From assembly GCA_964634945.1 (NCBI GenBank), contig CAZWMG010000009.1, positions 1,954 through 65,953 of the forward strand: a DNA stretch of 64,000 bases, in the 5' to 3' direction. Positions within the stretch are counted from its first letter, which is position 1. Each line of letters opens with the position of its first letter. Source of the stretch: an uncultured Planctomycetia bacterium (GTDB lineage Bacteria; Omnitrophota; Gorgyraeia; JABMRG01). The position numbers were made by a program, and so were the translations under genes. Below are positions 56,993 to 60,898 of this stretch, piece by piece. Below the pieces are notes generated by a model. The model was not told where the DNA came from and did no database searches. It saw only the letters and a program-made list of their open reading frames with translations.

Positions 56993-59900
56993 CTATACTC
57001 GTTTCTTGGCGAGGGCTACAAGTGGTTTTAATAAAAACCGCGTTATCCTCTTTAGCGCAGGCCTGTTGCTAATAAAATTAGCTATAGGCGGACTATACCT
57101 GTAATAGCTCCATACAAACTCTCTTCCTAATGAGTTTCTCATCAGGTATTTGTCTCTGAATTGTCTTAAAGCGATAACATCGCCAGCCATAGGCGTACCA
57201 TAAGCCGCTGTAGCTATAAAACAGTAGCTTGCTGTAGAAGAGCCGTCACTTGAGGCGTTTCCCGCTCCTCCGGCTGCAGCGGCAGCGGCAGCGGCGCCCC
57301 ATCCAAATATTGTAAGGTGATTGACTGTAGCGGATACGTAATTTTCATTTGGATGAACTACAGAGTCATAAAGCACTTCCCACAGCCCTGTGCTATCATT
57401 GAACCATCTAAGCTTTAAGTCATTCTCATTTATATTTGTGCCATCTACTATCCCATTATTATCCGCATCAGGATATGATATAGATAGGGTAATATCTTTT
57501 AGAAATGTGTTAACACCTGTTATATTAATATCGATAGTGCCACCTGCTCCGGAGACCATAACCTCCTCTATTGTAACATCCGGCATAGTACCATCGTCAG
57601 GTAGGGCCCCCTGTGGTATCTCTATTCTCGTACCATCCGGGAGAACTATTGTATTAGACTGCGCCGGATCAATAATCTGCTTCTTTACATAACTACCATT
57701 ACTATTTTCATAGATATCCGGATTTAAAGCGTTATTATCAACAATCAGAGAGATAACCTTAAATGATGTCAGATCTAATCCATTTACAGCTGCCCTGACT
57801 TGATAAGCCTGCCCATTAATAAGGGTTGTAGTGTCCCATGTTGTGGTATATGACATAACAGGGGTACCTTTACCAATATCTGTCCATAGAAGGTCTCCCA
57901 GCTTCCTATACTGGAACATAACCTCGGTCACGCCCGGATTATCCGGGTAGACCTCAGATACGAGTGAGATTGAATTTCCGGCTACAGTATCCCCTTCTTT
58001 AGGTATCTTTATATAACTTGAGTAAAACCCGATTGGATATTTTGAGAATACAGGTATATAAAAAGTATCCACAAGTCCGTTTGTGTTTGTTATTCTTAGC
58101 ATAGCGACACAAAACCCGGGGAACTGATAATTATATATCGGCGTATCCGATGATTTTGTTGTAGTATAATCTATATTCTTATCACCATCAAAATCCCATT
58201 CGTATTTCGCTATCGTGCCTGTGCTCAGAGAATGGTTAAAGACGGCCTGCACTGGAGATGTCGCGTCTATCGAAATAGCGTTAACTGTCGTATCGTAAGA
58301 TACAGTTGCCTGTGCCCTAAGAGTAGGTTCACTACCTGAAATTATGATCAATGCGCTATTGGATGAAGAAAGATTTGCTTCTGTATGCGCTTTTAGAGTA
58401 GCCCTGTAAACACCCGGCGCTCCATATACATGCGTCACATCCGCAAAACCCGTCCAACTAGGATTCTCTATTGAACTCGACCAGTCATTTATTCCATCTC
58501 CTTCAAAATCCCATTCCAGTTTTTTAGCGTATCCATAGCTATTGCCGCCTGCCGGCATGCCATATCCACCCAAAGAGACAGGAGCGCCTGTTGCACCTTG
58601 GATTATATAGCTATTCAAAAATACTTCCGGCCTGTAAACAGATCCATCCCATTTAGTAGCGTTAGCCATTACACTCATCTCTGCCACATCTGATAAACCC
58701 TGTGAATCTGTTACCCTGATCCCGCCGGTAAATATCCTTGATATTGTCTCATTGTATGTCCTTGTTATATCCGCGGATTTAGATGATGATATATCATACT
58801 CTCCATCGCCTGTTGTATCCCATTGGTATCTGACAATCTCAGCAGAGCCTGAAGCAGTAGCCTTAAGCTCCTTAAGAGATGGTATTATAATTTCATTTGC
58901 GATAGGATACGGAAGTAGGCCTCCTGCAAGCTGTGCTATAGGCGACAATGCGCTACCTAAGACATTAACTGTTACCGTAGAAATATCTATATTCCCCAAG
59001 CTATTCGTAGCGCGCATCCTGACATTATAGGCCCCTGCCGCTGTATATTTGTAGCTTACGACGCTTCCCTCTGAGGCATAGTGCCATCTGTCATAAGTAC
59101 CGTTTCCATCAAAATCCCATTCATACTTTACAACATCAGTGCTTACCACAGTAGATGAGAAAGTAACATCAAGAGGCAACTGCCCGCTTGATGGCAAGGC
59201 TGATAGCGCGATACCAATAGTATTATCAAATATATTTACACCGCTTACAGTTAACTTATAATCCTCGAGGCTTGTAAGGCCATTAGTGCCCACCTCATAG
59301 GCATTATACGGGTCATAAGGATCCGCGTCATAATTATCAGGTATGCCGTCATAATCACTATCTCCACTCGGTGGCGTTATGGGCCCTACATTAGGAATGC
59401 CCTTTCCTCCGTCATCAAGATACGGAATATAGCCTGTTTTCGCAAATACAAAATAGACTGAGGCAAGAGCAGCTTCACAATTATATGTATCAAATCCCGT
59501 TCCGGTTGGTACATTACCTGCCACACTCTTATCAAGATATGAGGCATATGGCGCGATATATGATGCTGGGTCATCACTCGGAACTTTAAAGAAGTTTTCA
59601 AGACTGGCAACTAGGGTATTGTACCTATCCAGATAATACGCGGCCTTAGTGTCATTGCCTGAGTCATGATATAACTGCGCAGCCCTTAAATAAGCAAGTG
59701 CCATCTGTGAAGATATCTCAACAGACCCATAATTTCCAGTCTGTGAAATAGAGAACCTGAAAAATATTGGCTTACCAGCAATGTTAAAAAACGCGGTTTT
59801 TGACTCTATCACAGAAAACATCTGATCAAGCTCTTGCTCTCTTAAGGCTTGTGTACCGCCAAAAAACGCGTCATCAAAGATCATATCCAATGGCGCCAGA

Positions 59901-60898
59901 GCCATTACATCGGTTGCGATATAATTAAAGTCTGTCTTTACCCATGCGCCGCCAACATAACTTGCCGCTGAATGGAAAAGATGGACACTAGGATCATACA
60001 TGCTCTTAAGCCATGTTTTTATACTATCAGCTGCCTGCTGGTATACTATATCACCTGTCATCTTATACAATGCTTCAAAGGCATAAAGGGCACGCTCATT
60101 CTGTTCTGTTGATTTAAGATGCCAGAAGAAATAATCACCTGTAGGGTGTGGCATGCCTATGGGGCCATAACGCAAGCCCCCGTCTGTGTCCTGCAATTTA
60201 AACATATACTCGCCTAAGAGGATAGAGAAATCCTTATACGCTTGATTCTGGGTCTTGCTATAGGCCTCAGCCGCGTACATAATAAGCACAGATGCGGCAC
60301 CAGTATCAACAGACCAATCCCAGATCTTCCACCAATCTATTACATCCCTGTTTAATATCCTTACTATCCTGTAAGGGCCGTATAATATCTGATTCCCGCT
60401 TGCGTCTGTATAACCATCGCTACATTTTAAAAGCGGATTATTCACATCTAAGCGCTGATAATAATAATTTATATAGGTATCTAGTATCGTTGTCACGCCA
60501 TTAAATAATGATATCCTTCCAAGAAGCGCCTGATCATAAGCTGAAGCTCCGGAGGTCATTAAATCCACATCACCAGCGGTTCCTCCGCCTAAATACTTCT
60601 GAAAACTTCTTGTAAGGCCATTGAAGGCATAATCTGTCTGCAGGGTATTATCCAATGCCCTGTCTAAGAAATATTTTACATATGGCACAGCTGAGTTATA
60701 AAAAATCGGCTTAGGGGGATATGGCAAGCTACTTCCACCACCTATGGTAACTGATGCTGAAAAGTTCTTCTTCGCCAAAGAGTCAAACGCGGCAAATGAT
60801 AAAGGAACATCAAGAAGGCAGACCGCGACAACAAGTAAAACGCTTACGCATTTTAGTTTTAGTCCGCTCAATATATTTCTCTTTATCATAAGATCCAT
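56993..60898 (-). CDS. Giant secreted multidomain protein (1301 aa): N-terminal alpha/alpha-toroid-like region, at least four PKD domains, a beta-sandwich region, an Ala/Gly linker and a conserved Cys-containing C-terminal tail
   Basis: Signal peptide. PKD signatures [48 protein letters not shown]. It ends ...[57 protein letters not shown]...[11 protein letters not shown]. Confidence 0.65.
   Translation of the reverse strand: [1301 protein letters not shown]

Follow-up and report, generated by a model that had tools for sequence, protein, structure and literature searches.

The protein considered here is a 1301-amino-acid (aa), PKD-rich product of an Omnitrophota bacterium, encoded in a 64-kb stretch of contig CAZWMG010000009.1 (the whole stretch analysed is called the window below). 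It ends in a conserved Cys-containing tail that, judged by its sequence, almost certainly belongs to the known CFI-box-CTERM family (NF041770). We propose that this tail is a C-terminal envelope-retention module, serving for anchoring or docking, and that the variant found in the window, which has no transmembrane (TM) helix, docks peripherally, most plausibly through a GspC-like protein encoded beside it. We put the probability of this reading at roughly 0.55. The family is already catalogued and curated, experimentally uncharacterised, and the window tail is another member of it. Our leads beyond the catalogued family are modest: a division into long and short forms, a predicted four-helix fold with no relatives in the PDB, and a strict coupling between the short form and the GspC-like gene within a conserved gene cassette. 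With more than 30,000 clusters, spread over uncultured anaerobic bacteria and anaerobic methanotrophic (ANME) archaea, CFI-box-CTERM is among the largest families of C-terminal modules without experimental characterisation, and knowing the mechanism by which its members are retained would improve the prediction of surface proteomes in those lineages.

Translation of the open reading frame (ORF), which starts with ATG and ends in ...LAKKRV, together with the PKD stretches recognized by Pfam, bore out the description given in a first-pass annotation of this DNA, that is, a 1301-aa PKD-rich protein with a linker and a Cys-containing tail. In a scan of NCBIfam, NF041770 (“CFI-box-CTERM”) matched the whole protein with 97.9 bits (E=2e-28) and the tail alone with 103.9 bits, in both cases more than twice the curated cutoff of 40. 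The match covered the model completely, from position 1 to 69 of 69, corresponding to residues 1226-1294. The signature of the family, CFIATAA[YF]G, is present as CFIATAAYG at residues 1226-1234, with Cys1226 as its first residue, and, with 76 residues from Cys1226 to the stop, the module forms the very end of the protein, set off from the rest by a low-complexity linker. The motif occurs once in the six-frame translation of the window. No other NCBIfam model matched the tail at E<=1, including those for PEP-CTERM, GlyGly-CTERM (TIGR03501), MYXO-CTERM, LPXTG, the type IX secretion system (T9SS) C-terminal domain (CTD), and the JDVT-, Synerg- and CGP-CTERM signals; the Pfam scan of the host protein also returned nothing for the tail. 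A second curated model of only 14 positions, NF041763 (“CFI-box putative sorting motif”), was matched when tails of the long form (see below) were scanned, and was not reached by the window tail at E<=1. The long-form tails gave only generic TM or basic matches of 12-15 bits, below the cutoffs, to other sorting-signal models. The motif, for which the first-pass annotation could offer no name, was thus already described as NF041770, and the idea that it serves for sorting was already the curators' label in NF041763.

The family is very large and widely distributed. With a profile of the tail and sequences clustered at 50% identity, 31,468 representatives were matched at E<=1e-3, of which 23,957 reached E<=1e-10. 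Exact CFIATAAY sites numbered at least 600 in species-representative genomes, and 80 of these loci were kept in our motif scan. The bacterial loci kept belong to Chloroflexota (Dehalococcoidia), Nitrospirota, Omnitrophota, Planctomycetota, Desulfobacterota, Beta- and Gammaproteobacteria, Hydrogenedentota and Armatimonadota, and the archaeal ones to Methanophagales and Ca. Ethanoperedens (ANME). Several metagenome-assembled genomes (MAGs) carry two to four of the 80 loci, four being the maximum. Among these loci, the closest matches to the window tail come from Omnitrophota and “Planctomycetia” MAGs.

The position of the module is strict: it lies at the very C-terminus in 87/87 host ORFs, with 75-149 aa between the Cys and the stop. 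The occurrences that appeared to be internal were tandem or fused units, in which each module is followed by a TM helix, a basic cluster and then a new signal-peptide-like segment. The cargo proteins are secreted and unrelated to each other, and include a papain-type protease with InlB repeats, β-propellers, TSP3/fn3 proteins, BspA-LRR proteins with Big domains, DUF11 and PKD proteins, and archaeal fn3 proteins. CFIATAAYG was invariant in all 23 homologues from the first round of searches, and the motif was found in 167 of the 168 proteins collected, the sole exception being an N-terminally truncated fragment. Its positions are 96-100% conserved across 255 distinct modules, and Gly occupies positions -1 to -5 before the Cys in 45-59% of the family. 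Conservation extends over the whole length of 69 residues (including R20, R23, D24, YY and SPP), with exactly one conserved Cys per module. The recurrence considered in the first-pass annotation is therefore real, for a strictly C-terminal tail that has an invariant Cys and hangs by a linker on secreted proteins of unrelated kinds; given the 31,468 clusters and the nature of the apparently internal cases, the tail is neither peculiar to this protein nor an ordinary internal domain.

What had been taken for a short C-terminal segment is in fact a module of 69-76 aa with a predicted four-helix fold. The AlphaFold2 (AF2) model, built from an alignment of 23 sequences, has a mean pLDDT of 90.8 and a pTM of 0.76, and consists of four amphipathic helices: FIATAA, LRxFRD, a long helix with YYRYSPPIA, and a final one with LKPLVxLAKK. 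Neither a Foldseek search of the model against the PDB nor a sequence-profile search of the PDB with the module (E<=10) gave any match. The family occurs in two forms. In the long form, found in 119 of the 159 proteins scored and in 242 of 331 distinct tails when these proteins were pooled with the ORFs of the loci, a hydrophobic TM helix and a cluster of Arg/Lys come after the module. Because of the positive-inside rule, the long form is expected to be anchored in the membrane in type-I fashion, its module lying immediately outside, on the side of the cargo. In the short form, comprising ~25-30% of the family, the chain ends where helix 4 does.

The window protein belongs to this TM-less minority, and since its orthologues end at the same position, its tail is not an artefact of truncation. 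It differs from the typical NF041770 member also in its linker, rich in Ala and Ser instead of poly-Gly, and in being unusually basic: the module is amphipathic, with 14 Lys/Arg against 3 Asp/Glu. The terminal AKKRV is basic as well, but no TM helix precedes it, whereas long-form relatives have a TM helix with RRR or KKK. Being TM-less, the window protein is without two of the three elements that make up a classical sorting signal, the TM helix and the basic cluster after it, and its tail lies outside the PEP-CTERM, GlyGly-CTERM, MYXO-CTERM, LPXTG and T9SS families. It may nevertheless act like an anchoring signal. The resemblance to sorting domains pointed out in the first-pass annotation holds, then, for the layout of cargo, linker and terminal module, and fails for the TM helix, the Arg cluster after it and the PEP-CTERM, GlyGly-CTERM and T9SS models.

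The main rival explanation, possible if doubtful, is that the CFI box is a classical cleaved sorting signal, in line with the sorting idea of the first-pass annotation and with the NCBIfam label. An enzyme not linked to the locus (CPBP/myxosortase-, rhomboid- or exosortase-like) would read the box, the Cys would be lipidated and the chain cut beside it, the four-helix tail would be discarded, and the cargo would stay anchored by its lipid. This would specify one mechanism of anchoring, and is compatible with a retention module. The invariant Cys stands exactly at the junction of linker and module, motif, TM helix and Arg cluster come in the right order in the long forms, several copies occur in some genomes on unrelated cargo, and the curators of NF041763 chose the name of putative sorting motif. 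Genes for sorting enzymes often lie apart from those of their substrates. Also in favour of cleavage is the example of four further C-terminal signals with a Cys, which CPBP proteases process, probably once they have been lipidated; a lipidated Cys and removal of the tail are shown or proposed for signals of the MYXO-CTERM type (10.1101/2023.06.07.544157; PMC11980579). CFI goes unmentioned in these myxosortase papers. The ~55 conserved and confidently folded residues between the motif and the TM helix are, however, unlike any known tripartite signal, no known sorting-signal model matches, the ~25-30% of members in the short form (the window protein included) have no TM helix or Arg cluster after it, and an identical motif in Bacteria and Archaea would need an equally universal enzyme.

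No such enzyme emerged from the neighbourhood of the CFI genes. Among 58 polytopic membrane proteins encoded near 40 CFI loci, Pfam assigned none to CPBP or rhomboid, one to exosortase and two to ICMT/PEMT-type methyltransferases. The 40 window ORFs scanned include no sortase, exosortase, rhomboid or CPBP, in agreement with the earlier remark that no sortase-like enzyme is nearby. When the neighbours of 80, then ~160 loci were clustered, no universal neighbour was found, and the co-occurring processing enzyme suggested at first pass did not recur beside CFI genes in those ~160 loci; only the GspC-like gene recurs, in one sub-clade. The ICMT/PEMT-family neighbours (2/58) are too few for enrichment. 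ICMT, isoprenylcysteine carboxyl methyltransferase, acts on the processed C-terminal Cys of eukaryotic CaaX proteins.

Comparison with individual systems gives a similarly divided picture. The Cys-containing signals of the MYXO-CTERM type share with CFI an invariant Cys in a C-terminal signature, with TM helix and Arg cluster behind it in the case of long-form CFI tails, a link to the type II secretion system (T2SS) in some lineages, and the occurrence on many unrelated surface proteins. They measure only ~30-40 aa, though, and their motif borders on the TM helix, while CFI has the folded helical spacer; the window protein is TM-less, matches none of their models and has no CPBP neighbour. The GlyGly-CTERM/rhombosortase system, exemplified by Vibrio VesB, also places a C-terminal tag on secreted enzymes, with a Gly-rich stretch before the key motif; it differs in the motif itself, in its mandatory TM helix and in its enzyme of the rhomboid family, a family not seen among the neighbours scanned. 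Surface display of such tagged enzymes depends on a T2SS. PEP-CTERM and the T9SS CTD have the same succession of cargo, linker and conserved C-terminal element, but PEP-CTERM is a short motif with a TM helix and an Arg cluster, and the T9SS CTD a β-sandwich of ~80 aa, whereas CFI is predicted to be all-helical. In general, tripartite signals (LPXTG, PEP-CTERM, GlyGly-CTERM, MYXO-CTERM) have a short motif directly before the TM helix, and the conserved region in the window is 69 aa long and TM-less.

Two mechanisms based on the residues around the Cys were set aside. Self-cleavage at G|C, as in hedgehog or intein domains, seems improbable for a module with no conserved His or TXXH block, a variable residue at -1 and a helical fold. 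A lipobox-like reading of GGG-C was discarded since no hydrophobic h-region precedes it.

The architecture of the host protein (Table 1) points to an exchangeable C-terminal module. Orthologues share the N-terminus MxxxxKRNILSxLxxxCxSxLLxxAxCLLxxPLSFAAF, and because of this both the start codon and the Sec-type signal peptide are supported. An identical protein, in the same gene order, was found on two Logan contigs. Residues 36-560 gave an AF2 model (pLDDT 79, pTM 0.80) of an (α/α)6 barrel, for which Foldseek retrieved from the PDB the GH88 and GH105 unsaturated glucuronyl/rhamnogalacturonyl hydrolases, GH76 mannanases and AGE-family epimerases (E~2e-7, probability 1.00, TM 0.42-0.66, ~10% identity). 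All homologues of this region are from MAGs of Candidatus Omnitrophota, the likely phylum of the source. The (α/α)6 domain is optional cargo: it is present in the window and in the orthologue L171 and absent from L168-L170, all with otherwise collinear cassettes, while the PKD, β-rich and CFI parts are present in every cassette orthologue compared. In the most divergent orthologue (L170) the tail is the best-conserved segment, with 78% against 41-51% for the PKD and β-rich regions. Elsewhere in Omnitrophota the same (α/α)6 domain is followed by dockerin type I repeats, by Ig-like arrays, or directly by a CFI tail (protein P0177). Because this domain carries such varied C-termini, including the docking module dockerin, the tail appears as one of several interchangeable C-terminal modules. 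Dockerin type I (PF00404) is likewise a small C-terminal docking module of secreted carbohydrate-active enzymes, and takes the same place on the (α/α)6 domain; it is a Ca-binding EF-hand-like repeat with a known partner, cohesin, whereas CFI is an unrelated four-helix module. For annotation, we describe the window protein as a carbohydrate-active PKD protein that an Omnitrophota bacterium secretes and probably retains at its envelope.

The first-pass annotation overlooked a co-conserved gene immediately downstream of the CFI gene, 2 nt past its stop. The 231-aa product has an architecture (N-terminal TM, HR region, PDZ) that would fit GspC. All its scores are below the curated cutoffs, given here in brackets: 100.8 for NF041515, GspC_delta (150), 51.4 for TIGR01713 (101.6), and 22.9 for PF11356 (27); a match to PF13180 was also below threshold. 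Searches against PDB sequences gave weak matches to the PDZ domain of EpsC (2i4s), the HR region of GspC (7oio) and the PDZ domains of RseP and DegP. Homologues of this gene lie directly downstream of short-form CFI genes also in the loci L003, L004, L005, L015, L046 and L069, and the reverse look-up, starting from GspC-like homologues (49-70% identity), found a PKD protein with a short-form CFI tail directly upstream on 4/4 contigs. The two genes adjoin in every cassette examined. Across the family, adjacency was observed in 6 of 44 evaluable short-form loci and in none of 106 long-form ones (Fisher p=5e-4; the loci are related, so that the counts are not independent). The pairing offers a concrete, testable partner for the short form.

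These observations also allow an alternative of narrower scope, which we consider unlikely: in a sub-clade of Omnitrophota and Planctomycetota, the short-form tail together with the ~200-aa β domain preceding it would form a T2SS-like targeting or docking element, bound by the co-transcribed GspC-like protein and handed over to a conduit in the outer membrane, either a secretin or the 1341-aa protein described below. Besides the adjacency just described and its enrichment in short forms, this explanation draws on L015, L046 and L062, where the CFI gene lies inside complete T2SS clusters with secretin, GspE, GspF and PilM/N, on the GspE/F, pseudopilin and PilMNO genes of the window itself (at 5.4-17.4 kb), and on the glycosidase-like cargo, a typical class of T2SS substrates. 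T2SS dependence has moreover been documented for other C-terminally tagged surface proteins (10.1101/2023.06.07.544157; PMC11980579), and the route would have its parallel in the display of GlyGly-CTERM and MYXO-CTERM proteins through T2SS. The association could instead be with the shared β domain and not with the CFI module. BLASTP alignments show that this region is common only to the CFI proteins linked to GspC: the hosts in L015, L046 and L069 align to the window protein from residues ~1017, 1041 and 1092, respectively, to 1301, and other CFI hosts align to residues 1224-1301 only. A T2SS context is missing for the majority of CFI proteins, among them those of archaea and of the monoderm Chloroflexota, and both the relatedness of the loci and the sub-cutoff scores of the GspC-like protein count against this alternative.

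In the retention reading that we favour, the protein would be exported through Sec, and its module of ~70 residues would lie on the outer side of the cytoplasmic membrane, connected to the cargo by a flexible Gly/Ala/Ser linker at the extreme C-terminus. In most members the module would sit close to the membrane, with the TM helix and a cytoplasmic Arg cluster behind it as the anchor. In the Omnitrophota lineage of the window, the TM-less, strongly basic and amphipathic module would attach peripherally, to the membrane or to a protein partner, for which the inner-membrane GspC-like protein is the best candidate. The residue that matters chemically is probably the invariant Cys where linker and module meet; if it resembles the Cys of MYXO-CTERM-type signals, it could carry a modification or define where the chain is cut. 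The support for anchoring consists of the terminal position, the TM helix with its Arg cluster, the Gly linker, the unrelated secreted cargo, the swap with dockerin, the +11 charge of the window module, the conservation of the tail in L170, the label of NF041763, the adjacent GspC-like gene and the helices modelled by AF2.

Several observations weigh against retention as the function of the tail. The same nine consecutive residues are kept unchanged in Bacteria and Archaea alike, a degree of constraint beyond what plain anchoring would require. The window tail has no segment qualifying as a TM helix (its last helix has a mean Kyte-Doolittle hydropathy of 0.14), and the net charge of short forms ranges from -6 to +14, for which reason we rejected electrostatic peripheral binding as a general property of the short form. 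A full-text search for “CFI-box” or “CFIATAA” found no literature. Three further points also bear on the T2SS-like alternative: the GspC-like adjacency is confined to one sub-clade, the Omnitrophota CFI protein P0177 has the tail and no GspC-like neighbour, and the terminal residues of the cassette orthologues vary (V, V, R, Q, R, S, R) where those of a PDZ ligand would be conserved, which makes canonical recognition of the extreme C-terminus by the PDZ domain unlikely. Finally, the module exists as a stand-alone gene with clean intergenic boundaries in L163 (4001-4354) and L164 (4001-4294). In the stand-alone protein P0018 and its relatives, a lipoprotein-type signal (LxQC) and ~12 residues precede a module ending in WW, and in P0004 the module follows 18 N-terminal residues and no signal peptide. 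These genes suggest that the module may have an independent function.

Taken further, the stand-alone genes lead to an autonomous domain whose main task is not localisation, either a helical oligomerisation stalk cross-linked through the Cys or a small domain binding a ligand or metal, an explanation that we regard as very improbable. The compact and confidently predicted fold, the conservation along all 69 residues and the single conserved Cys of each module would agree with it. The strict C-terminal place behind a flexible linker, and the TM helix and Arg cluster that often follow, are on the other hand features of an anchor and not of a catalytic or binding domain, the module alignment shows none of the usual marks of a metal site (a conserved His, a second Cys or acidic clusters), and no relatives by fold or sequence in the PDB back a specific activity. 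The functional readings given here partly overlap.

Concerning the family at large, in three independent cluster representatives (P0060, P0103 and P0116) the CFI module with its TM helix and RKKR runs on into another hydrophobic segment and a conserved extension of ~270 aa, which starts with ADAHIFKVKPGEQ. This may be a frequent downstream partner joined in frame, or the product of gene calling that read through.

The CFI and GspC-like genes belong to a conserved Omnitrophota cassette, spanning 46938-64000 of the window and seen also in L001 and L168-L171. On the look-up contigs its order is GH94, ~275-aa paralogues, proteins of ~430 and ~262 aa, the PKD/CFI protein, the GspC-like protein, a ~1300-aa protein ending in GGQYRF, a ~530-aa protein and a HEAT-like one, followed in some cassettes by a polysaccharide deacetylase. 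The 275-, 431-, 264- and 530-aa proteins of the window had no significant match in Pfam, NCBIfam or PDB sequences, and the β-rich part of the 1341-aa protein had no family match. Orthologues of the latter show 54-79% identity, lie at the same position and have the same GGQYRF C-terminus in all four cases. This ending resembles an outer-membrane β-signal, and the protein is probably a giant outer-membrane protein of the cassette; synteny suggests that it may work with the CFI protein. The gene gspD normally follows gspC. The 1341-aa protein, encoded at the position of gspD, could then be a substitute for the secretin, and the cassette may be an undescribed system of surface assembly or secretion. 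An ambitious and rather unlikely extension of these ideas is that the CFI box is a self-contained, Cys-centred means of envelope attachment in Bacteria and Archaea, working either with no dedicated sortase or with an enzyme yet to be found, and that Omnitrophota would have drawn its TM-less variant into such a surface-display or secretion cassette, alongside a dedicated GspC-like adaptor and a giant secretin-less outer-membrane protein.

Table 1. Coordinates of the features discussed, in positions of the window.
Feature	Position	Strand	Basis or remark
Whole gene, 1301-aa secreted PKD-rich protein with CFI-box-CTERM tail	56993..60898	-	ORF listing and translation
Sec-type signal peptide (residues ~1-36; basic n-region and hydrophobic stretch)	60791..60898	-	Read from sequence; conserved in L168-L171
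(α/α)6-barrel domain, six-hairpin glycosidase/epimerase type (residues ~60-500)	59399..60721	-	AF2 and Foldseek
PKD array (residues ~564-1000)	57899..59209	-	PF18911 and PF00801, 3-4 stretches, E~1e-19
β-rich region ending NHLTIFGWG (residues ~1001-1201)	57296..57898	-	BLASTP; no Pfam hit
Ala/Gly/Ser low-complexity linker, 24 aa (residues 1202-1225)	57224..57295	-	Sequence
CFI-box-CTERM module (residues 1226-1301), TM-less short form, CFIATAAYG start, net charge +11	56996..57223	-	NF041770, AF2
GspC-like gene, 231 aa (N-terminal TM, HR region, PDZ)	56295..56990	-	Begins 2 nt past stop of CFI gene
GH94	just beyond window end		Cassette member
~275-aa paralogues	63130-63957		Cassette members
431-aa protein, N-domain common with 275-aa paralogues	61706-63001		Cassette member
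264-aa protein	60900-61694		Cassette member
1341-aa protein: signal/TM segment, TPR, six PEPSKRPYT-type repeats, >1000 β-rich residues, GGQYRF end	52137..56162	-	
530-aa protein	50369-51961		Cassette member
851-aa HEAT-like protein	47801-50356		Cassette member
Polysaccharide deacetylase	46938-47588		Cassette member
T2SSE ATPase (GspE)	15747-17432	-	
N-methyl pseudopilin	13934-14719	-	
T2SSF (GspF)	11830-13041	-	
YfhO-like 791-aa membrane protein	8484-10859	-	Inside T2SS/T4P-like cluster
PilM/N fusion	6477-8162	-	
PilO	5896-6480	-	
T2SSB-like	5387-5890	-	

Elsewhere in the window, a gene cluster resembling those of T2SS and type IV pili (T4P) occupies 5387-17432 on the reverse strand (Table 1). 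No window ORF scanned, in this cluster or outside it, matched the secretin family (PF00263). The window also encodes an apolipoprotein N-acyltransferase (Lnt; 32089-33867, reverse strand), and another one directly follows the GspC-like gene in L005 (3861-5309). BamD/YbgF, LptE and MurJ are encoded in the window as well, and because of these genes and Lnt the organism is taken to be diderm and to make triacylated lipoproteins.

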